Shown: positions 3,669 through 51,632 of the stretch, one piece after another
Position numbering within the stretch: position 1 is the stretch's first letter
Layout: every line of letters begins with the position of its first letter
Assembly: GCF_041248615.1 (NCBI RefSeq)
Contig: NZ_CP158426.1
DNA: 64,000 nucleotides
Direction: 5' to 3' (one strand)
Origin: Escherichia coli
GTDB taxonomy: Bacteria > Pseudomonadota > Gammaproteobacteria > Enterobacterales > Enterobacteriaceae
Program-made: the position numbers and the translations under genes
Notes under the pieces: generated by a model
Database searches by the model: none
Seen by the model: only the letters and a program-made list of their open reading frames with translations
What the model was told of the DNA's origin: nothing

Positions 3669-4783
3669 CAGATCACCTCCAGGTCGGCATCCAGCGCGCC
3701 CGCTTCATGCAGCGCCTGCAAAATCGACATAATGTCGTCCGGCGTCGCGCCTAAACTGTTCAGCGCATTGACCAGCGTTTTCAGGCTGCTCGACTCCGGC
3801 AAACTCACCACGCCAGGGCGCGCATGATTCACCGCGATATTACTCTGCGGCGTTACCGCCGTGCGCCCGCCCGCAAAGGCATTCGGCTGGCTGACGTTGC
3901 TGGTTTCGTTAATCGAAACGGTCAAACTACCGTGCGACACCGCCGCCGCGTGTAGCGCAACGCCATCGCCCATCACCACCGTGCCGGTACGCGAGTTAAA
4001 CACCACGCGAGCGCGGATTTTCTCCGCCTGCACCTGCACATCGTCCAGTTGCGACATAAACGCCACCCGCGCACCGGGGCTGGTAGGCGCGCGCACGGTG
4101 ACGTTGGTGGAACTCTGCGCCGTGGCAATGCCGCCAAACGAGGCGTTGATCGCCGCTGCAATATTATTGGCATCTTTAAACGACGGGCGTTTCAGATTGA
4201 GCGTGATGGTATCGCCCATCTGAAAATCGCTGGGGATCTCACGCTCCACCGTTGCGCCGTTGGGAATTAACCCGGCGGTCGGCGTGTTAACCGTCACGCT
4301 GGAACCGCTGGCCCCGGTGGCGTTCATCCCGCCCACCACCACGCTGCCCTGCGCGAGGGCATAAACTTCGCCATCCGCGCCGTGCAACTGCGTCAGCAAC
4401 AAAGTGCCGCCACGAATACTTTTCGCATCGCCAATCGACGAAACGGTGACATCAATGGTCTGCCCGCGCGAGTACATCGGCGGCAGCGTGGCGCTCACCG
4501 CCACCGCGGCGACGTTTTTCACCTTCGGGTCGATTTTATTCGGCAACTGCACGCCAAACTGGCGCAGCATATTGGTGATGGTCTGGTTAGTGAATTTGAC
4601 CTGGTTTTTATCGCCCGTACCGTCGAGGCCTACCACCAGGCTGTAGCCCACCAGTTGGTTTTCACGCACGCCCTGTACGTTGACCAACGACTCCAGCGAT
4701 TGCGCCAGCGCCACACCGGGCAGCGCCAGGCTTACGGCGATCGCTGCGGCCTTTATCCAGTTTTGCATTGCACTCTCCGGCAT
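3668..4783 (-). CDS. lfgI: Flagellar P-ring protein FlgI
   Basis: 371 aa, signal peptide, strong FlgI pattern ([12 protein letters not shown]...). Confidence 0.9.
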
Positions 4784-5448
4784 TAAATCGGGAACAGAGG
4801 ATGGTTAAACAGCCGCGTCAGCCAGCCTGCGGCGTTGGCGTCGCTTAACGCGCCGCGTCCGGCATAGGAGATACGGGCGTCGGCGATCCGCTGGGAGGAA
4901 ACCGAGTTGTCGTTCTGAATATCGTCGGCGCGTACCAGGCCGCTTAAGCGGATGTACTCATCGCCCTGGTTGAGGGTCAGCCATTTTTCGCCGCGAATTT
5001 CCAGGATGCCGTTGGGCTGCACCGCATGGACGGAAACGGTGATCTCCCCGCGCAGGCTGTTCTGCTGCTGGGAAGTGGCGCTGCCGTCAAAGTCGCGGTT
5101 GGCATCGATGGAGCCGGAAAGCTTATCTTTGGTGTGACCAAAAATGGTCGGTGCGCCGATGTCGACGGTGTTGTTTTTACCGAAGTTGGTTTTCGCCTGT
5201 TTGCTCGACTGGGTGGATTCTTCGAGGATCACCGTCAGGATATCGCCCACGCGGTAAGCCCGCCGATCGGCGGTGAGCGACCAGTTGTAGCCGGTTTCAA
5301 ACACGCCCCCGGCACGCCCGTCTGCCGGAGGCGGTGCTTCGGTTTTCGGTGGCGCAAAGTATGCGTCGTCTTTTTTGACCAGAATGGCCTGCGATTCACA
5401 CCCGCTAAGCAGGGGAAGCAGCGCCACCAGCCAGAGATAATTTTTCAC
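4783..5448 (-). CDS. lfgH: Flagellar L-ring lipoprotein FlgH
   Basis: Lipobox LLSGC; start moved to GTG at 5448 ([17 protein letters not shown]); the ORF-track N-terminal extension runs into a REP repeat. Confidence 0.85.
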
Positions 5449-40671: not shown

Positions 40672-40990
40672 TCAGAAGTGACCGTCAAGGCGGTCACCGA
40701 ACTCGATAATAAAGCGACTCTTCCCTATCCGCCAGTCCTGAAGTGGCATCGTCCATTTTTGCGACGCTGACTGGAAAGCCAGCCACACCACTTTTTTCAC
40801 CGACTCATCTGTCGGGAACACTTTCCGTTTCTTTATCGCATGTGTGATGATGCTATTCAGCGATTCGATTGCGTTAGTGGTGTAGATAACCTTGCGGATC
40901 GCCTCCGGGTACACGAAGAATGTGGCAACATTCGGCCAGTTTGCCCGCCAGCTGCGACTTATCTGCGGGTACCGTGCATCCCATTCCTTC
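40672..40990 (-). pseudogene. IS256-family (mutator-type) transposase, C-terminal fragment only
   Basis: Encodes ..ANWPNVATFFVYPEAIRKVIYTTNAIESLN...KWTMPLQDWR.. which matches only the last ~105 aa of IS256-like transposases. Confidence 0.6.
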
Positions 40991-41001
40991 CCAGGGAAAG
41001 A

Positions 41002-42119
41002 TTACGAAAGCCCGCTCCCCGCAAGGACTGACGCCAGATAGTTTCTGTCCATGGCTGCTTTTCGCATCTTACGTCTTAACCCTGCCTTGAATACCTTATC
41101 ATTCGTCAAAATATTAATAGCGATGTGCCGTATCCCTGAAAATAATTCTGCTGCATTTCCTCTTCTTATTTTGCAGTCGTCTTCATTCATTACCACGTCC
41201 AGACGCCAGTGCAGCTTATTCTCCACGTGCCAGTGGTTTCGGATTGCTGTGGCGAACTTCTCTGCGGTTAAATCAGCAGAACTAATATAATATCTGACCG
41301 TCATTTCTGGCTCTTTCTTTTGTTCTGCTATTATTGACCGAAAGGAGACTGCCACGCATAATTTCTTCAGACCTTTCCATTCAAACGTGAAATCAATAAG
41401 TTCATCAGGGACATCGCAAACAATGTGAAGACGGATTTCTTCTCTGCCGTGACTCTTTTCACTCATTGCGTAACTGTCATGCTCTGGATTATTTAATTCT
41501 TTCAGCGGAAATTCTCGAAGGCTTTATTTAGCCGCCCCTGGTTTCCTTTTACAGCGAATAAATAATCACCTCCCTGTTTTTGTATCTTCTCTGCAATATC
41601 TTTCTGGCAACCCATCGCATCAGTTGTGATGATTTTTCCTTTAATATCCAGCATGTTAAGAAGTTCTGGGATAGCTGTAATTTCATTGGATTTCTCATCC
41701 GTCCTGATCTGTCCGATGACCAGACTGTGCATTGTTGAGAACGCACTAATGACATGAATCGCTCCCTTGCGGCGACTCTTGTCATAAGAATGCCGGAGTG
41801 TTTTTCCATCAATTGCGATGACGTCTTTATCATCTGAAGTATGGCAATCTCGCATCCAGTTAATAAAGCACTCGTGAAATTTTGCAGGACTGATACAGGA
41901 TACAACTCTGGCGATGGTATCGTGAACAGGAATACCATTTTCAAAATCACCGTATTGTTTTAAAAAATCGAGATGTGTTTCCCCAAAATCCTCTATATCT
42001 TCCCAACCTTCCGCACCCGAAATAACAGCACAAATAGTCAACAGTAGAATATCCGATAATTTATGTTCCACTTTCCAGGCTTGTCTGTAATCGGGGATAA
42101 TAGAAATATGCCCCATCAA
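41002..42119 (-). pseudogene. ISAs1-family (H-repeat-associated) transposase, frameshifted
   Basis: Two ORFs (41502-42119 and 41002-41466) cover N- and C-terminal parts; reading continues in another frame across 41466-41505 ([15 protein letters not shown]), showing a small deletion near KAFE|NF. Confidence 0.75.
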
Positions 42120-42306
42120 TTTTTTAAGTTCTATTTTGTTCTCCTTAATTATGTAAGGAGTATTTGATCATGTATAAGCAATAAAAAACAGCTTTAGGTA
42201 ATGAGGAATATCTCAATTTTTAAGCATAAAATGCGAATTGTTTAGTACAAAAAAGCAGCGTTACGTGATCTTTCCCTGCACTTCACCCTAACTTTAATTT
42301 AACTTC

Positions 42307-42346
42307 AAGAAGTATTAAGGCCTCAATAGCGAACTTAATACTTCTT
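42307..42346 (-). terminator. AT-rich hairpin downstream of Rhs immunity gene (weak terminator candidate)
   Basis: aagaagtattaag-N14-cttaatacttctt perfect 13-bp inverted repeat. Confidence 0.3.
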
Positions 42347-42354
42347 AAAGAATA

Positions 42355-42732
42355 TCACTCCTGACCAAAATCTTTCCACACTAATGCATGAGACTTTGAT
42401 TTATCACCCAAAAATTTACTTACATCTTTCCAAAGTAAAGAATTGCTATCGGTCGCAGTGACTATTGCCTCTATAAGCCCTGTAGCTACAACTGTGGCCA
42501 ATTCATCATCAATCGAGACCATACCATCTTCGACATGTTTAAATATTTTTTCTCTTTCAATATCACCCATTTCATAAAAATTTTTTACAATCGTTTTTCC
42601 AATCTGAGAGAACAACATAACCACCGGTGGAGTTTCTGGATGCCAGTATTCATTAGCTAATGAGACTGTCTCAGACAAAACAGTGGAAAACGATGCCATT
42701 TTTTCTATATAATTAGCAATATATTGGTTCAT
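42355..42732 (-). CDS. Putative immunity protein for the Rhs C-terminal toxin
   Basis: 125 aa AT-rich ORF immediately downstream of the rhs stop; family not recognised. Confidence 0.55.
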   Translation of the reverse strand: MNQYIANYIEKMASFSTVLSETVSLANEYWHPETPPVVMLFSQIGKTIVKNFYEMGDIEREKIFKHVEDGMVSIDDELATVVATGLIEAIVTATDSNSLLWKDVSKFLGDKSKSHALVWKDFGQE

Positions 42733-45700
42733 TACTTGCCTCCCAAAGCATTCTGTAAATCCTGAAGAACGTTTTCTGCTGCTGCTCGATCCCCTGGAGA
42801 TGCTGTTGGATTCTTATCCAACCAATCCTGTAAAGCCCTTGTATAATCCTGTGCTTTCAATACATGTCCTCTACCACCAACTTTTTCACCTGTGGCCAAT
42901 TCATAACGAACAGCATCTGCTGTGCTTCCACTTCCTACTTTTGCATTTGGCCGATAAAGATCGTCTATAATATTTTTCAAATTTGAATCTGTAACGTCAG
43001 GTTTTCCCATCTTCTGTCGCAATTCATCTTTATACCGTTCATGCTGCATACGATCTCTTGCGCTATTCTCATCTTCTGGTCCCCATCCTCCCGGGCTTCC
43101 CGTACTGCCACCACCCAGGCAGTTCTTCTCTTCCTCCGTCAAATCCTTCCCGACATTTGGATTCTCTTTTGATGAATCATCATTTCCAAACACGCTGGAA
43201 AAAGCACCATAGGGATCTCGCCAGAATTCCATTTGACTTTGTGCATTTAATAATTCGGCTTCACCCTGCATCTCCATACTTTTCTCAATCGCGTCCCCAA
43301 CAGCCTCGCGATTGTTGTATATTATTATACCACCACCAATAACCACCGTACCGACTGCCGCACCGACTAACATCCCCGGAGGGCCTCCTACCGAACCGAT
43401 CTCTGTACCTACTTCAGAACCAGTTCCCATGGCAGTTAATGCTCCTGCGCCCAACGCCGCACTTAATCCCAGCGGATCCAGCCGTTGCACCGGGTTCAGT
43501 GGATACGCATACAGGTTCCATCCCCCCTTCAGCCCAATCGGATCCTGGGTGATATACCTCCCCTGTAGCGGGTCATAGTACCGGTGACGGTTGTAGTACA
43601 GCCCCGACTCCTCATCATACTGCTGCCCCGGCAGACGGAGTGACTGTTGAAGGTGCTGCGTGCTTTCCTCTCCCAGCAGGTTTCCCCACTCGTCATACTC
43701 CCCGCGCCACGCCGTTTCCCCTTCCGGGCTGATAAGCGCCTGCGGCAGCCCACGGTGGTCACAGTGGTAAAGATGAAGTTTCCTCTCCGGGATGTATTCC
43801 GCCTCCAGTTGCGCCGCCATCTGTTCCGCCGTCAACCCACACTGTGCAAGCCACTGCTGGCTTTCTTCACTCACGCTGCCCTGCCGCAGTTCCCGCTCCA
43901 GCCTCCCCAGCATCACCGCCAGCTCCGCCGGTAGCGTCACACCCGTGTCCTCCTGCAACACCTCCGCCAGGCTACGGTGCCGCGCCTTCGCCTGTTCGCC
44001 ATTCTCTGTTTCGATTCTCAGGAGCGGCGTGAAGCTCCCCGGCTGGTATACCGTCTGGATACGCGTGGTGTCGGTCTGTACCGTCGTCAGCCTGTCGCCG
44101 TCCCACCCGTACCAGGTCACCTCCGGTTTACGCGACAGCGACATCCACCCCGTCAGGTCACGCTCCCGCCGCCACACCCGTTTTCCCGTCCGGCGGCCCA
44201 GCGGGTCATAGAGGTAGCGGCTCTCCACCTGTGGCTCGCCGTGCTGTATCCGCGTGTAGAACACCAGGCGGTGCTGGCTGTCGTAATGGTAGTGGTGCGT
44301 CCGCTCGTCGTGCATCCGTATCACCCCTTCCGGGATACGGTCCGTCTTCTCCGCCAGCCTGCCGTATTCATCGTAGCGGTAGACATAGTGCGCATCTTCC
44401 GTGATGCGGTTATCCGGCCACGCCGTGAAGGTGCTGTCCGGGTGCAGTTCCGGGTCCGGCAGCCGGTTTCCTGCCGGGTCCGTCGCATACGGGATATCAA
44501 TGTCCAGGTTCGCTGCCGTGGTGTGGACGCCCGTCAGCCTTCCCGTGTCGCTGTAACGGTACTCCCGGCTCTCCTGCGGGCCGCTGATGCGAATTAGCTG
44601 TCCGTTGTCGTTCCAGTCGTAGTCACGGTCAAGCTGCGGAAGGTTCAGGTGCCTGCTCCGGAGCTGGCCGCTGGTATTCCAGGCGGTGGCAAGCTCATAT
44701 GCCTCCCCGCCGAAGCTGCGGGCCGTCTCACGGTGCAGCCGGTCCCGCGTGTACTCGACCAGTGGCGTACCACCCAGCTTCATTCCCGCAAGATAACCGC
44801 TGCCATACGTCAGCCACTCCACCGGCGGCAGACCGTCCGGCTCCTGACGGGTCGCCAGCCCCTGTTCGCTGTACGCGTGCTTCGTCTCATGCTCCCACAG
44901 CATCTCCCCCGTCTCCGGGTTCTCCACCGTCTGCCGTTCGCCCGTCAGGCGGCCTTTATCGTCGTGGCCGTAGTGGACCGCCACACGGTGGCCTTCGCTG
45001 ATATGGCTGATTTCTGTCAGCCAGCCGTGCTCATCATACTGCCACTGCTCCGCCGGGTCGCCGTTCACCGTCCGGTGCGTGATGCGGTCCGACGCATCGT
45101 AATGCCAGAGGGTGATAAGCCCCTCATCTTCACTCTGCGTGAGTTTTCCGGTCAGGTCATAGTGGTAACGTTGCGTCCGCCCGTCAAAGCCGCGCTGCTC
45201 CGTCAGCCTGTCCACCGGGTCATACCGGAACGTGGACTGGCTGCCGTTCTCGTTGGTCAGCACGGTGGTGCGACCGGCGGCGTCATACCCCATGCTGCGC
45301 GTCAGTCCGCCTTCCGTCACACTCACCGGACGCCCGCGTTTATCATATTCGATGGTGCTGCGTTTACCGTCCGGTGATATCGTCGCTGTCAGGTCGCCTG
45401 CGGTGCTGTACTCATAACGGGTTTCACGCCCCTGCGCATCCTTCTGACTGACCAGTTGGCCACGCGGGTTATAACTGCTGTAAGTGCTGATGCCTTCTTC
45501 CCGGTGAACGGCGATTTGTTGACCGTACCGGTCATACTCATACCGCGTCGTGTACCCCGAGCAGTCCGTAAACGCCTGAAGCTGACCGTACCGGTTTCGC
45601 GTTATTCTCCGCATCACCCCGGTTCCGTCTTCCACCGCGCCGGGCAGGCTACTGCGGGGGGAGTCATAAAACCAGCGCGTAATGTTACCGTTGCGCGAGA

Positions 45701-47231
45701 TCTCTTCCGCCAGCCTGCCCTGACGGTCATATTTCCGGCTGCTGCGCAGCCCGTCCGGGTACGTCACTGACGTCAGTTGCAACTGGTTGTTGTAACCATA
45801 CCGTACCGTCCTGCCGTCCGGAAGTATCACTGAAGTCAGCTTTCCAGACGCCATATGCAGCCGATACTCCGTCCGCCGTCCCGCCGCATCCGTCTGCGCC
45901 TTCAGCCTCCCCGCCTCATCATACTCGCTGCGGGTGATGCTCCCGTCCGCATGTTCCTTCTTCACCACCCGCTTCAGGCCACCTTCGCCTTCCGTGTACA
46001 GCACCTCCCGCCTGTTCAGGCTGTCCGTGATGATTACCCGGCTCTCTCCGTACTCAAAGCGGTAGTCCAGCCCCTCCGGGTTGACCTGCTCCGTCACCCG
46101 GCCGGTATCATCATACCGGTAGCGGCTCTCCGGCCTCCCCGCATAATGGTGCGCCACCATCCGCCCGGCGTGCGCCACATCATAAGTAACCCCGCGCACC
46201 TGCGTCCCGCTGCGGTCATACACCGCCCGCAGTTCTCCGCTGGCCGTGTACGTGTAGCGCGCCAGCGGCGCAGTCGGCTGTTCATCCGGGTATGCCGGGT
46301 CGTGTGTCAGCCACACCGCCTCCAGCCGGATACCGTTATCGGCACCGTATTCTGTACCGACGGGCAGCGTATCGGGGAAAACCTGAGAAGAGGAAACAGA
46401 ACGGGGACCGGCAGGGGAAGATAAGGAAGACTCGCGCTGTTTACGGGACGCTTCCGCCCGCTGTGACTGTGTGGTCAGCGCCAGGTGAAAACAGCGGCCC
46501 GCGCCGTCCGTCACCCTGGTGATTTCACCAGCCAGTTCGCCTGCGGCCTCGCGGTGGAAAGTCAGTGAACGCCCGAAGCCGTCCACCACGCCCGTCAGCA
46601 CCCGGTATGCGGGTGGCTCCGGCGGCAACACCTCGTCCACCCCCGGCACCCGCTCCGGCCAGCCGAGTACCAGCCACTGCCCGGTTGTGCTGACAGCCAT
46701 CATATAGGTGTGTGGACTCAGGCGGACCGCTTCCGGCAACGCCCGCCAGAGCCGGGCCAGCGGGTGGCCTTTCTGCTGTTTCAGCACCCCGCCCCGCGCC
46801 AGCCAGAACGACTCGCTGCGGCTGTAGCTTATCTCGCCGGGAAACAGCGGCTCAAAGTGAATGCTCCTGCCGCCGCTGTCGTTGAGTATCAGGCCTTCAT
46901 CGCGTATCTGTAAGCGGATATCGAAGGGGGCTTTCCAGCCGGGACCAAACACCCCCACCGGCGCGGGCGTCCTGGTCCGGTAGCTGCTGTAGGCGCGGAA
47001 AAGAACAAACGGCAGCGGGCCGGACAGTGCCAGGTCGGTTTCAGCAGGCAGCACCTTCGCTCCCAGCAGCGGGTTTACCGGATTACCCTTCTGCTCCTCT
47101 ATCGGGCTGTTGGGACATACCGAACAGGCCACACCGGTTGGCGCACCTATCAGCACCCCTGCTGAACCCTGCACAATATCCAGTCCCTTGCGGGTCATGT
47201 CACCCTGCCGCGCCGCCGGTTTTCCACCCAT
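42732..47231 (-). CDS. rhs: PAAR-domain Rhs repeat protein with polymorphic C-terminal toxin domain (T6SS effector)
   Basis: 1499 aa; N-terminal [15 protein letters not shown] motif, YD repeats, DPxGL demarcation (RLDPLGL) then ~243-aa tip; tip (42735-43463) is markedly AT-rich relative to the core. Confidence 0.9.
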
Positions 47232-47306: not shown

Positions 47307-49448
47307 TCAAAATTGCCGCATATCCGGCATTCCGGGGGGTAAATCTTTCGGCACAGGCGCATCCGGTACAGGTTGTGTGGCACCACAGTTCCAGTTAATC
47401 ACCGGCGCATCACCGTTCACATCCGACTCTCCTTCCAGATGAATGTGCGTACCATTGAGAAATATGCTTCCGTCCTTCGTCAGCACCAACCTTGCCTTAC
47501 CGCAGCAGAGTTCCAGATGCTCACCGGCAGAATAAACTGCTGTTTGTCCGGTGTTTTCCTTCATCGTCTTGCCCACCGAGAAGGTGACGTTATTCCCTAC
47601 ATTGACGCTGTAGCCCATTCCCACCATCAGTGATTTATGCAGCCCTACCTGTGAGGACTGCAACAACGCCACCGAGGTATTCATGATGCCGCCTACCGTC
47701 GTCTGGTAAGCCACGCCCACCGTCAGCGCACGAATGATCCCCACCTTTTCAACCTGGTTTGAACCCACTTTGACAATCTGGTTGCTGCCTACCGTTTCCA
47801 CCTGGTTGACACCAACCGTCTGTATCTGATTAACGCCAATGTTCTGGATCTGGTTATTGGTAACGGTGATCGCCTGGTTGTTACCTATTTTTTCGGCATG
47901 GTTGTTTATCACATCCGTGGTGCGGTTATTCAGCACCTCGGTGTTCATGTTCTTCTGCGCGTGGATGTAGACCTGTTCTTTCCCTGTCGCATCGTCAAAC
48001 TTCAGTTCATTAAACCCGCTGCCCTTATAGGTTTTCGAACGAATGGTCATCTGCGTCTTTGTTCCCGGCAGGCTGCCGGGGGTGCGGTTTTCCTGGTGGT
48101 AGGTACGCCCCATAATAATCGGCTGGTCCGGATCGCCGTTGAGGAAGTCCACAATGACTTCCTGACCCACACGCGGTATCGCCAGGTTGCCAAAGCCGGT
48201 GCCTGCCCACGCCTGTGCCACACGGATCCAGCATGAACTGTCCTGGTTTGACGGGTTATAGCGGTCCCAGTTAAATTTCACCCGCACGCGGCCATGTTCA
48301 TCACAGAAGATTTCTTCTCCTGCCGGTCCCGTCACGACGGCGCTCTGCGGGCCGTCCACCAGCGGTTTCAGCAACGGCTGTGGCCGCCATGTTCTGTCTG
48401 CCGGTATTACCGCAAAGTGGTTATTCAGCGTGGTACCTGAACCCCTGCGTCCCGGCACCGCCTGCGGCTGCTCGCCGTGCAGTTCACTTGCCACCACCTG
48501 CCATTCCCGGTTCAGGTTCGCCTGCGGATGCCCCGTCAGCGCAATTCGCCGTCCCGGCCATATCTCCGGCGAACGGCTTGTTCCGCGCGCCACTTCTGCG
48601 TTGTTTCGCCAGCCATCCATCTGCCAGCAGGCAAAGTTCTGCCCGTGGGCACCCTTGAAACGTCCGGGGTAGTCATACACTTCATACTGTGTGCGCTGGT
48701 AATCCTGGTGCTGGCCTTCCTGATCAAAACGCCCTGCCCAGCCGGGTCGTTTAAAGGTGTAGTCTTTGGTCACCACGGAAGATGGGCGGATTTGTGCGCT
48801 GTAGAGGAACTGGCTGATGCATAGGGTGCTCACCTCGGTACGGGTGTTCGGATTCCAGGGGATCTCAAAGGACTCCGGCAGATAACGCACGGTGTCGCAC
48901 AGGACCAGGCTCTGGTCGGTACTTTTTTGCGCGTGCTCCTCATAAAAGAAGATGCCTTCCTCCGCCGCCATCCGGCACAGGAAATCGTAATCGGTTTCGC
49001 CGTACTGGACACAAAACTCACGGGAAGGATGCGGCTCGCTGAACAGCGGACTCCACTCGGTCACCCCGTTTTCTTTCAGGATCGTCGCGAGTATGCTTTC
49101 GATGTCCTCATTCTGGAAGATACGGAAGTTCTGGCGCAGCCCTGTGCGCCACAGCGGTGGGCACACCTTCATGCTGTACAGCATCTGGTTTTTGTCGTTC
49201 TCCCCCAGTTCAAACCAGGTCACCACACCTTTCACCCGGCGCTGTACGTCATCGCCCTGCCATACCGTCAGGTAGGCCATTTTGTCCAGCACCTGCGCAA
49301 ATTCAAGGGAGAGAAACTGCTGGCTGACCAGAGAGAGATCGAGGGAAAAGAGCGAAGAGAGTGACTGGTTCAGATGAAAGGAGACCACCGCAAACGCGTC
49401 CGGTGGCAGGCCGTCCACTTCCAGCGTGAAACGTAATCCGGTTGACAT
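47307..49448 (-). CDS. vgrG: T6SS spike protein VgrG (TssI)
   Basis: 713 aa; gp27/gp5-like VgrG pattern, position between hcp and PAAR-rhs; GGAGG RBS. Confidence 0.9.
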   Translation of the reverse strand: MSTGLRFTLEVDGLPPDAFAVVSFHLNQSLSSLFSLDLSLVSQQFLSLEFAQVLDKMAYLTVWQGDDVQRRVKGVVTWFELGENDKNQMLYSMKVCPPLWRTGLRQNFRIFQNEDIESILATILKENGVTEWSPLFSEPHPSREFCVQYGETDYDFLCRMAAEEGIFFYEEHAQKSTDQSLVLCDTVRYLPESFEIPWNPNTRTEVSTLCISQFLYSAQIRPSSVVTKDYTFKRPGWAGRFDQEGQHQDYQRTQYEVYDYPGRFKGAHGQNFACWQMDGWRNNAEVARGTSRSPEIWPGRRIALTGHPQANLNREWQVVASELHGEQPQAVPGRRGSGTTLNNHFAVIPADRTWRPQPLLKPLVDGPQSAVVTGPAGEEIFCDEHGRVRVKFNWDRYNPSNQDSSCWIRVAQAWAGTGFGNLAIPRVGQEVIVDFLNGDPDQPIIMGRTYHQENRTPGSLPGTKTQMTIRSKTYKGSGFNELKFDDATGKEQVYIHAQKNMNTEVLNNRTTDVINNHAEKIGNNQAITVTNNQIQNIGVNQIQTVGVNQVETVGSNQIVKVGSNQVEKVGIIRALTVGVAYQTTVGGIMNTSVALLQSSQVGLHKSLMVGMGYSVNVGNNVTFSVGKTMKENTGQTAVYSAGEHLELCCGKARLVLTKDGSIFLNGTHIHLEGESDVNGDAPVINWNCGATQPVPDAPVPKDLPPGMPDMRQF

Positions 49449-49657: not shown

Positions 49658-50176
49658 TTATGCTTCCAGCGGTGCGCGCCAGTCGTCGGCACCGGAGGTG
49701 CCAGACTTGACGTGTTCCCACTCTATTTTGCGGTAGGCCAGTGAAACTTCGAGCAACTGGGTGAACTCGCGTTTCGCCGGATCCTGGCAATGCGGCATAT
49801 GCAGTTTCATATCGACAATCGTCGAATCGGTCAGGCGGGTGGTGAAATAATGCTCCTGTTTGCCTTCCACAGAGGTACGCCACCAGTGAAGTTCAGTGGT
49901 TGGCAGCATTTCGCCGGAGGCCAGTGCGTTGTACATCAGCGGAACAGCTTTGTTCAGCGCCACGGTAAAAATGAACGGCTTGTGAGCACGCTGACCCGCA
50001 GGCTGGCCGGACTGAGGATCGGTCGGGACAGTAACGTTATGCAGGAATTCCTGCACCAGCATCTCGTCTTCGTGCCCCTGCACATAGATGTTGCCGACAG
50101 AATCAGCGGTAAATGCACCTGCAGTAATATTTCCCTGGGTCTGACCAGTGATGGAGATATAACACGGTGTTGGCAT
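49658..50176 (-). CDS. hcp: T6SS tube protein Hcp (TssD)
   Basis: 172 aa; Hcp family pattern. Confidence 0.9.
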   Translation of the reverse strand: MPTPCYISITGQTQGNITAGAFTADSVGNIYVQGHEDEMLVQEFLHNVTVPTDPQSGQPAGQRAHKPFIFTVALNKAVPLMYNALASGEMLPTTELHWWRTSVEGKQEHYFTTRLTDSTIVDMKLHMPHCQDPAKREFTQLLEVSLAYRKIEWEHVKSGTSGADDWRAPLEA

Positions 50177-50474
50177 TTGTAAACTCCTTGTTAACGTGGT
50201 TAATTACTACTTACAATGACCTGCCGTTAATCCCAGACAGGCAGATGCAGCTCACTTCACGGAACCGCATCATTTTTCAGTATTTTTTACATACAAACCG
50301 AGCTAGAATTTACGGTTGTCGTAAAAACTATTTTTAAAATCATTAAATCTCTTATTCAGCAATAAGTTAATAATATATATCTGGATAACCATACCCAACT
50401 ATTCAAAGTCCGTATTGCCTCCATAAAATGGCCAAAGCTGAATCATGAATAAATATTGTATTTATCCTTTCTGA

Positions 50475-50491
50475 ATTATCATTTTGATAAT
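50475..50491. promoter_or_regulatory. Candidate Fur-like palindrome in T6SS divergent control region
   Basis: ATTATCATTTTGATAAT perfect palindrome containing GATAAT/ATTATC hexamers; spacing is non-canonical. Confidence 0.25.
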
Positions 50492-50872
50492 TTTTGAGAT
50501 ATTCCTTAAAAATACCCACTTAATCAATCACAAAACAAATATATAAACAAGCAATCATCAGATTAGCTTATGTTTAATGAAATTATTATATAATTCAATA
50601 AGTTACATAAAAACTCTATATTTAAATTATTGCCATAATACACCTGACGCGAATTTCGAAGGTTCACACAATCTATTTAACGCTTGCAGAATACCTCTCT
50701 TTACGATCGATAAAAAGTCCTTTTCTTATTTATTTTGAAGCGTAGAATGCGGGGTGATGAAGGAGTGGTGATTTTATTTTCACCGCCATTAGGGCGGCAT
50801 TGCCGATATTTTTTTGCGGTACAAATATGCCGTGTTCATGGCCTGTACGAGATAACATGACGGATCACTTTT

Positions 50873-51373: not shown

Positions 51374-51407
51374 CCACCACTATTTCATTAAACAGGGTTA
51401 TCCAGAC

Positions 51408-51632
51408 ATGGCGGCACACAAAAATATCTCCGGGAAAAACCCCCTCTCTGACGAAGACATTTTGCAGGCGGTTTACCGGGTATGTTTCAGCCCGTCCGGT
51501 GAAATCAACCGGGATGGCGTGGATGCGCTGATTACAACACTGGATCGCCGTATCAGTGATCTATTGGATGAGATTATCCATTTTTGTGAGTTTCAGCAGA
51601 GCGCGTCGCACTGGCAGCGCGTACTTCACTGA
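51408..51632 (+). CDS. Short ORF resembling a diverged N-terminal segment of TssC (paralogous fragment)
   Basis: 74 aa from ATG 51408; VDALITTLDRRISDLLDEIIHFCEFQQSASHWQ aligns with VDSMIADIDERISRQMDVIIHAPAFQQVESFWR of the adjacent full-length TssC. Confidence 0.45.
   Translation: MAAHKNISGKNPLSDEDILQAVYRVCFSPSGEINRDGVDALITTLDRRISDLLDEIIHFCEFQQSASHWQRVLH

Follow-up and report, generated by a model that had tools for sequence, protein, structure and literature searches.

A composite tip on an Escherichia coli T6SS Rhs effector: a putative toxin domain of an unannotated family and a DUF7674 candidate immunity protein

We analysed a 64,000-nucleotide stretch of the Escherichia coli chromosome (contig NZ_CP158426.1 of assembly GCF_041248615.1, hereafter the window), which carries a type VI secretion system (T6SS) cassette with an Rhs gene and, directly downstream, an open reading frame (ORF) for a small protein of 125 amino acids (aa). 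The C-terminal tip of the Rhs protein and this small protein very probably form an effector/immunity pair of an unannotated family. The explanation that best accounts for the data as a whole, and towards which we consider the balance slightly tilted, is that of a T6SS Rhs effector whose cargo has three parts, the last of which, an unnamed domain of about 110 aa, would be a toxin active in the cytoplasm and blocked by an immunity protein of the DUF7674 family. What is new here is the large, highly conserved and unnamed toxin family, together with DUF7674 as its putative immunity partner.

The tip of the Rhs protein and its C-terminal domain

The Rhs core is recognized by the NCBIfam model RHS_core (NF041261; 2492.5 bits, cut-off 2000) over residues 1-1256 of the Rhs protein, and by Rhs_assc_core (TIGR03696) over residues 1179-1256, ending at the motif PxxxxDPxGL, beyond which lies the variable tip. 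Both models stop at the very residue, 1256, at which an earlier note made from the sequence alone had placed the end of the core (RLDPLGL). The ORF coordinates given there, the 243-aa tip at 42735-43463 and its Gly-rich hydrophobic start agree with the ORF list and the translations. The tip is a composite of three parts, an N-terminal module (N-module), a conserved joint and a domain of about 110 aa modelled as five helices, which we refer to as the toxin domain. The features concerned are as follows, with their evidence in brackets.

43464-43493, minus strand: PxxxxDPxGL, end of the Rhs core and expected self-cleavage site (translation; TIGR03696)
42735-43463, minus strand: whole tip, 243 aa (translation beyond the core end)
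43185-43463, minus strand: N-module, tip residues 1-93, Gly-rich and hydrophobic, then helical (occurs on other tips)
43317-43373, minus strand: transmembrane-like segment, tip residues 31-49 (19-residue Kyte-Doolittle mean 2.11)
43071-43184, minus strand: conserved joint (linker), tip residues 94-131 (matches, by phmmer, the linker preceding the toxin in CdiA-CT UPEC536)
42735-43070, minus strand: putative toxin domain, tip residues 132-243, equal to Rhs residues 1388-1499 (homologues; AlphaFold2 model)
42355-42732, minus strand: candidate immunity gene, 125 aa (DUF7674 match, synteny, acidity, overlap with the Rhs stop codon)

These parts occur in other combinations. The tip is polymorphic, since it is present in 267 of 5426 complete E. 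coli genomes while the adjoining core end is matched in 4841. At the DNA level, the N-part is found in 945 E. coli genomes, just 268 of which have the full tip. In hundreds of other E. coli genomes, the N-module (about 93.5% DNA identity) belongs instead to an orphan tip, WP_000960005.1, whose toxin differs and whose immunity gene is of the DUF3969 family. In E. coli H14, for example, a 150-aa orphan Rhs tip (positions 4020-4932 of locus L010) consists of the N-part, the joint and a different unannotated C-terminal domain, and is followed by a DUF3969 gene; P0015 and similar proteins likewise combine the same N-part and joint with another C-terminal domain. The same C-terminal domain, in turn, is present behind other N-parts in proteins from E. 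coli (P0001) and Salmonella salamae (P0002) and in the CdiA proteins P0061 and P0007, the latter of which aligns over its residues 100-245 to the entry domain of the UPEC536 toxin. The immunity gene follows the C-terminal domain, because the N-module is paired with DUF3969 elsewhere and the C-terminal domain always with DUF7674. As the immunity gene changes with the C-terminal domain and not with the N-part, we attribute the toxic activity to the final ~110 residues. The N-module without the full tip was observed in roughly 680 of the 5426 complete genomes, the sampled cases being orphan tips annotated as 'hypothetical protein'.

The joint connects this tip to toxins of type V secretion systems (T5SS). 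In phmmer searches against the PDB sequences, tip residues 94-168 match residues 96-165 of the C-terminal toxic region (CT) of CdiA from UPEC536 (5j43, 5j5v and 8zyc; E ~1e-5). The matched region is the linker ahead of that toxin (the joint and the first toxin helix), and not its catalytic domain. Tip residues 1-93 gave no match to the UPEC536 entry domain, which is of the FtsH class, and the N-module has no match in Pfam. The joint (43071-43184) is common to T6SS Rhs tips and to the T5SS CdiA-CT regions of UPEC536, Yersinia, Erwinia, Pantoea and Serratia, and recombination breakpoints flank it on both sides; it has the appearance of a shared splice point, or else of a functional linker, in enterobacterial polymorphic toxins. 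One segment of the N-part (tip residues 31-49) is Gly-rich and strongly hydrophobic. By analogy with the bipartite CdiA-CT regions (PMC11630599, PMC9424206), the N-part and the joint may together constitute a delivery or translocation module. The matches of the tip to PDC-M09A (E 7.7e-4) and phrog_16692 are due to Gly-rich low-complexity sequence and were discarded as not meaningful.

The toxin domain belongs to a large family. A profile search of 1.84 billion representatives (clusters at 50% identity) retrieved 2198 proteins at E<=1e-3, of which 1374 reach E<=1e-10 and 270 reach E<=1e-30. Homologues that are 52-77% identical to the E. coli domain are present in Dickeya, Erwinia, Yersinia, Vibrio and Gilliamella, in metagenome-assembled genomes (MAGs) of Rhodopirellula and Clostridia, and in many metagenomes; overall, the family extends over Proteobacteria, Actinobacteria, Planctomycetes, Firmicutes and Bdellovibrio. 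The proteins that carry the domain contain PT-VENN, Fil_haemagg_2, DUF637, RHS, TEN_YD-shell, PAAR, WXG100_2, PT-HINT, PT-TG or ALF domains. Relatives in the AlphaFold database (AFDB), from Actinobacteria, Planctomycetes, Bdellovibrio, Paenibacillus, Neisseria, Xanthomonas and Acinetobacter, add CpnT-like carriers and carriers with a signal for the type VII secretion system (T7SS). This spread over carriers marks it as a polymorphic toxin domain employed by T5SS, T6SS and T7SS alike.

In an alignment of 50 sequences, eleven residues of the domain (P24, L31, G46, G48, S49, R55, E57, H69, K72, W83 and A97, in domain numbering) are invariant and fourteen others (R18, Y39, R40, S47, T50, T60, G61, N87, P88, D94, R95, E99, N100 and D104) nearly so. 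AlphaFold2 (AF2), run with 82 sequences, produced a confident model of five helices (predicted local distance score, pLDDT, 93.8; predicted TM-score, pTM, 0.85), in which the invariant GSGST forms part of the loop connecting helix 2 to helix 3, and the invariant His opens helix 4. The toxin domains of the family are mostly basic, with a median isoelectric point (pI) of 9.4.

No match to the toxin domain was obtained in Pfam, NCBIfam, PADLOC, PHROGs or the PDB sequences, the latter being searched with the tip, two toxin-family profiles and an immunity profile as queries. The earlier note had left the tip outside any toxin family and had named a confident database hit as the result that would overturn this. 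None was found in Pfam, NCBIfam, the PDB or by Foldseek, where the sole lead is a weak one, at the level of the fold, to Ntox28 (see below); the claim stands in a narrower form, the toxin being the last ~110 aa and not the whole tip. Besides the CdiA-CT linker, the PDB sequence searches returned eL29 (E 0.078) and DnaJB2 (E 0.1), both at chance level and set aside. In the sub-threshold alignment to eukaryotic eL29, positions 3-59 of toxin-family profile A2 show the pattern N..H...K..R..+KP......D..+R.N.K...GT..A+R, a resemblance most likely due to chance or composition. We also considered an identity with one of the Levy-lab toxins PT1-PT9 and did not retain it: the family profile found no PDB chain of these, the motif strings of our family are absent from one supplement, and identity with PT3 or PT9 is still conceivable on sequence grounds. 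Structures of PT1 and PT7 have reportedly been solved. Full-text literature searches with the toxin motif strings and 'DUF7674' returned no paper; their coverage is incomplete, and an earlier description elsewhere is possible.

The downstream gene and the DUF7674 family

The 125-aa protein taken alone has a weak match to DUF7674 (PF24722; E 5.7e-4, 20.4 bits, residues 24-119), and a word index retrieved only its close enterobacterial relatives, the distant homologues being found via synteny. A small homologous gene (121-158 aa) is located directly downstream of the toxin domain in all eight contexts compared, whether the carrier is of the CdiA, Rhs, PAAR or WXG100 type. The downstream genes include the following.

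Planctomycete-like contigs: DUF7674, 132 aa, with an uncalled copy in L002
Rhs locus L005: DUF7674
WXG100 locus L006: DUF7674 (weak match)
Locus L011, downstream of a CdiA of 2634 aa: 121 aa
Locus L013, downstream of an Erwinia CdiA orphan: 124 aa
Locus L014, downstream of a PAAR protein: 124 aa

The E. coli protein can be aligned with the neighbours annotated as DUF7674, with which it has in common the blocks W.PE.PP, F..(I/V)E and A(V/I)(A/T)TG(L/F)(I/L)E. The eight intact aligned proteins, including the one from E. coli (pI 4.8), are all acidic (pI 4.3-5.5), and the E. coli protein is predicted to be soluble and not a membrane protein. Because the synteny with the toxin domain is conserved in 8/8 contexts, we assign a putative immunity role to the 125-aa ORF; comparison of the loci supports its identification as a cognate immunity protein of the DUF7674 family, which would block the toxin in the producer. 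The suggestion that the adjacent ORF encodes the immunity protein, already made in the earlier note, is thereby strengthened by the recurrence of a homologous small acidic protein, and can be refined to a family that is named and uncharacterized.

The toxins of loci L003, L005, L006, L011, L013 and L014 are 52-77% identical to that of E. coli, and the corresponding immunity homologues 16-34% identical to the E. coli protein. The toxin is thus far more conserved than the immunity protein, the reverse of what might be expected from an arms race.

Possible mode of action of the toxin

Secretion, cleavage, membrane translocation, a cytoplasmic site of action and enzymatic activity are the steps that we infer for this effector. 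The Rhs protein would ride on the VgrG spike and hold the tip inside its YD shell; knowledge of Rhs/Tc proteins leads us to expect self-cleavage at DPLGL (PxxxxDPxGL), so that the tip would be released after T6SS firing. The hydrophobic N-module and the joint could then carry the toxin across the inner membrane of the target cell, in the fashion of CdiA-CT entry domains. The toxin would act in the cytoplasm, most likely on a nucleic acid, and the DUF7674 protein would block it in producer and kin cells. The invariant His (H1456 of the Rhs protein), together with R1442, E1444 and K1459, may be catalytic, in a manner loosely resembling the Ntox28 tRNase of CdiA-UPEC536 and independent of a CysK-binding tail. 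We regard a cytoplasmic target as probable and give a nucleic-acid target an even chance; that the toxin is specifically an RNase, an RNA or tRNA endonuclease, is our best single guess and a tentative one. A nucleic-acid target is favoured because of the combination of basic toxins and acidic immunity proteins, the invariant R, E, H and K residues, the delivery modules that this tip has in common with nucleases of contact-dependent inhibition (CDI) and the weak resemblance to the Ntox28 fold.

A number of results weigh against this explanation. In E. coli, the toxin has a neutral pI (7.0), the invariant GSGST loop would equally fit an enzyme binding nucleotides or phosphate, and the toxin model found nothing in the PDB with Foldseek at E<=0.001 (best E 1.3). 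Hydropathy and analogy are all that suggests a translocation role for the N-module. With toxin and immunity protein fused by a (GGGGS)6 linker, AF2 gave a model (pTM 0.79) in which both domains are confident and the linker alone is disordered; this is consistent with a defined toxin-immunity complex, but the model was built on just 7 paired sequences and read without contacts or predicted aligned error (PAE). The other points on this side concern Ntox28, whose best-studied comparator is the CdiA-CT of UPEC536. This toxin cleaves the anticodon loop of tRNA with the catalytic residues D155, which binds Mg2+, K170, W176 and H178, and is active solely on CysK, to which it binds via its GYGI tail (PMC11724271). 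Were our toxin a divergent Ntox28 member, a tRNA anticodon-loop nuclease that has lost its dependence on CysK, the tip would already be explained. In support of this, Foldseek against AFDB50 matched the toxin model to a 'Bacterial toxin 28 domain-containing protein' (44% identity, 87 columns, E 1e-6; A0A0X8D552, a bridging entry by its name), the upstream joint is common to both toxins, and the phmmer alignments extend into helix 1. From the joint to the C-terminus, both toxins measure 105 aa, and both end in similar helices with an NP....A....AL.G-like pattern. By manual alignment, a GG precedes the His of the long helix by two to four residues in each (GGYWDH178 in UPEC536, GGRGH in the Rhs toxin), and in one hmmsearch alignment, of just 3.6 bits, the invariant His aligns with the catalytic His of UPEC536. 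However, Pfam Ntox28 (PF15605) matched neither the tip nor any of the 144 (82 + 62) relatives scanned singly, even at E<=10. Against a set of UPEC536 relatives that we collected and aligned, the toxin family obtained a probability of 0.5% with hhalign and noise-level scores with hmmsearch (best 4.1 bits), and its profile finds no CdiA chain in the PDB. The catalytic Asp and Trp of UPEC536 (D155 and W176) have no clear counterparts conserved in the family, and the G(Y/H)GI tail for CysK is absent, the tip ending in NALGGK and the family consensus in NALxGx where the Ntox28 proteins end in GYGI or GHGI. Finally, the Ntox28 loci carry CdiI_3 (PF18616) immunity proteins, whereas those of our family carry DUF7674. 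Because several defining features of Ntox28 are lacking, we do not file the toxin domain under that family, membership of which we consider unlikely; the relation is better worded as 'may work like' than as 'is a member of'.

A serious alternative, which we rate as equally unlikely, is that the toxin is not a nuclease but an enzyme that consumes nucleotides or NAD(P), transfers phosphate or modifies proteins, acting on a universally conserved cytoplasmic factor. Close to R, E, H and K residues, the GSGST loop could bind phosphate, and no nuclease family was detected by any method; the strong conservation of the toxins across phyla, set beside their divergent immunity proteins, suggests a constraint imposed by a conserved substrate or partner. 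Against it, the domain resembles no known fold or hidden Markov model (HMM) of ADP-ribosyltransferases (ARTs), NADases, kinases, Fic proteins or (p)ppApp synthetases, it is very small and all-helical, and basic toxins with acidic immunity proteins are more typical of toxins that bind nucleic acids. We also considered that the Gly-rich N-part could be the real toxin, forming pores or acting as an ionophore in the manner of Tse5-CT or the CDI ionophores, with the C-terminal domain as an accessory or immunity-docking part. The transmembrane-like segment at tip residues 31-49 is reminiscent of a Gly-zipper, and Gly-zipper ionophoric CdiA-CTs as well as the Rhs pore-former Tse5 are known (PMC11630599). 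Yet the N-module is also combined with another C-terminal domain and an immunity gene of the DUF3969 family, the C-terminal domain of our tip is carried by CdiA, PAAR and WXG100 proteins that lack this N-module, always with DUF7674, and the immunity protein is soluble and acidic; since immunity tracks the C-terminal domain, we rejected the pore former as highly improbable. A bolder proposal, which we find somewhat doubtful, is that the ~110-aa domain founds a new toxin superfamily with an activity unlike that of any known polymorphic toxin, and thus not an Ntox28-type tRNase, that its conservation reflects a tight fit to a universal cytoplasmic target, and that the joint marks an inner-membrane import route common to T5SS and T6SS. 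A three-part Rhs cargo with a cytoplasmic toxin and a DUF7674 immunity protein remains our preferred explanation.

The cassette, its surroundings and known systems

The 1.4 kb around the tip are 100% identical to many complete E. coli genomes, such as that of strain 7/2, in which the RefSeq gene order is fadE, ivy, yafV, transposase remnants, a hypothetical protein, 'RHS element core protein', VgrG and Hcp, with tssB, tssC, tssE, tssF and tssG diverging past Hcp. The following features complete those of the tip.

49658-50176, minus strand: hcp (TssD tube protein), 172 aa (TIGR03344, E 1.7e-61; Hcp in RefSeq)
47307-49448, minus strand: vgrG (TssI spike), 713 aa (TIGR03361, E 5e-188; RefSeq annotation)
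42732-47231, minus strand: Rhs effector gene, 1499 aa, stop codon included in the coordinates (ORF list, translation, NF041261)
47088-47231, minus strand: N-terminal 48 residues of the Rhs protein, with a single PAAR motif, GKPAARQGD (sequence)
46854-47087, minus strand: DUF6531 domain, Rhs residues 49-126 (PF20148, E 3e-17)
42297-42350, minus strand: hairpin with a 17-bp perfect stem, directly 3' of the stop codon of the candidate immunity gene (RNA fold)

The hcp-vgrG-rhs-immunity arrangement is an E. coli T6SS effector cassette, an ordinary system of a textbook kind. The earlier note had described it as hcp-vgrG-PAAR-rhs-immunity: the T6SS cassette is borne out by TIGR03344, TIGR03361, NF041261 and RefSeq, but a PAAR domain (PF05488) was not detected by Pfam at the N-terminus of the Rhs protein, even at E<=10. 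Only DUF6531 and RHS repeats are found (7 YD repeats in the protein, with RHS_repeat matches in Pfam), the literal motif GKPAARQGD being present as one copy ahead of DUF6531. The gap between vgrG and rhs measures 75 bp, without a gene for an Eag/DUF1795 chaperone, and the mode of docking to VgrG is not obvious from the sequence.

The horizontal exchange that the earlier note had read from the AT-richness of the tip and of the downstream ORF agrees with the base composition and with the uneven distribution of the tip among genomes. The tip and the candidate immunity gene are compositionally foreign, as the GC content falls stepwise from the Rhs core (0.631; GC at third codon positions, GC3, 0.756) to the N-part and joint of the tip (~0.505; GC3 0.41-0.45), the last 112 codons, corresponding to the toxin domain (0.423; GC3 0.268), and the 125-aa ORF (0.354; GC3 0.294). 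The Rhs stop codon and the start of the ORF overlap as TAATG, and the pair is translationally coupled. The hairpin that follows (-21.5 kcal/mol, z -4.28, with none of 200 shuffles equally stable) lacks a U-tract, and a terminator scan gave no call there; it may represent the end of the transcript or a stabilizer.

Between yafV and the candidate immunity gene, decayed insertion-sequence genes (40672-42119, minus strand; pseudogenes in RefSeq), comprising an ISAs1/H-repeat transposase split over two ORFs and a partial transposase, mark the edge of the Rhs element. On the other side, the divergent hcp and tssB genes are separated by a very AT-rich spacer (GC 0.25-0.36, around positions 50200-50800 of the window), probably a shared regulatory region of the T6SS cluster. 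RefSeq annotates a 74-aa hypothetical gene between tssB and tssC (L001 21209-21433; about 51400-51630 of the window, plus strand). A tRNA scan of the window found no tRNA gene, so that no insertion site of the aspV type is visible.

At the T6SS locus, this exact toxin/immunity pair is present in about 5% of the complete E. coli genomes, and human clinical, animal and water isolates are among the tip carriers listed. The domain is deployed by carriers of the T5SS, T6SS and T7SS types in many phyla and has neither a Pfam or NCBIfam model nor a structure. Short, confidently modelled and with a compact set of invariant polar residues, it is a tractable target, which may turn out to have a new activity or to be a CysK-independent branch of the Ntox28 fold; characterizing the pair would moreover give DUF7674 a role. 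We consider it a good subject for the bench, of moderate interest and without conceptual surprise.

Among known systems, those closest in layout are the E. coli T6SS Rhs-CT effectors, of which Rhs-CT1 to CT10 (Ma et al. 2017) are reviewed in PMC6730261, and the K-12-type 'RHS element core protein'. They have the same core, the same vgrG-rhs-immunity layout by the T6SS cluster, a polymorphic AT-rich tip and an ISAs1/H-repeat remnant downstream. The named Rhs-CT classes are based on Pfam toxin domains (MPTase4, REase-3, Toxin_55), none of which is present in this tip, which would therefore fall into their 'unknown' clan; the present locus also differs from these systems by the absence of an eagR/DUF1795 gene between vgrG and rhs.

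The CdiA-CT of UPEC536 (Ntox28; CdiI; CysK; 5J43, 5J5V and 8ZYC) is likewise a bipartite cargo, with a delivery part, a Gly/Pro-rich joint (NPNIGKDLT.AEK.ELGGSGSG in common with the Rhs tip) and a small, basic, all-helical toxin in which a GG..H motif opens the long helix. It has four helices, as compared with five modelled helices and an extra GSGST loop in the Rhs toxin, from which a clear counterpart of K170 is missing as well as those of D155 and W176, and the two toxins differ in their carrier (T5SS CdiA versus T6SS Rhs) as they do in their immunity protein. Upstream of the joint, the Rhs N-module is unrelated to the entry domain of UPEC536, whose entry is FtsH-dependent (PMC11630599 Table 2). 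With the cytoplasm-entry domains of CdiA-CTs in general (PMC11630599, PMC9424206), this tip shares the independent recombination of entry and toxin parts and a hydrophobic or helical N-part ahead of a toxin of nuclease type, putatively so in this tip, and with the 536 class also the joint. In the present case, these parts are placed inside a T6SS Rhs shell, the joint alone is similar and the entry domain is not, and a role of the N-module in entry is suggested by analogy; the layout of N-module, joint and toxin thus bears on whether T6SS cargo uses CdiA-like modules for entry through the inner membrane.

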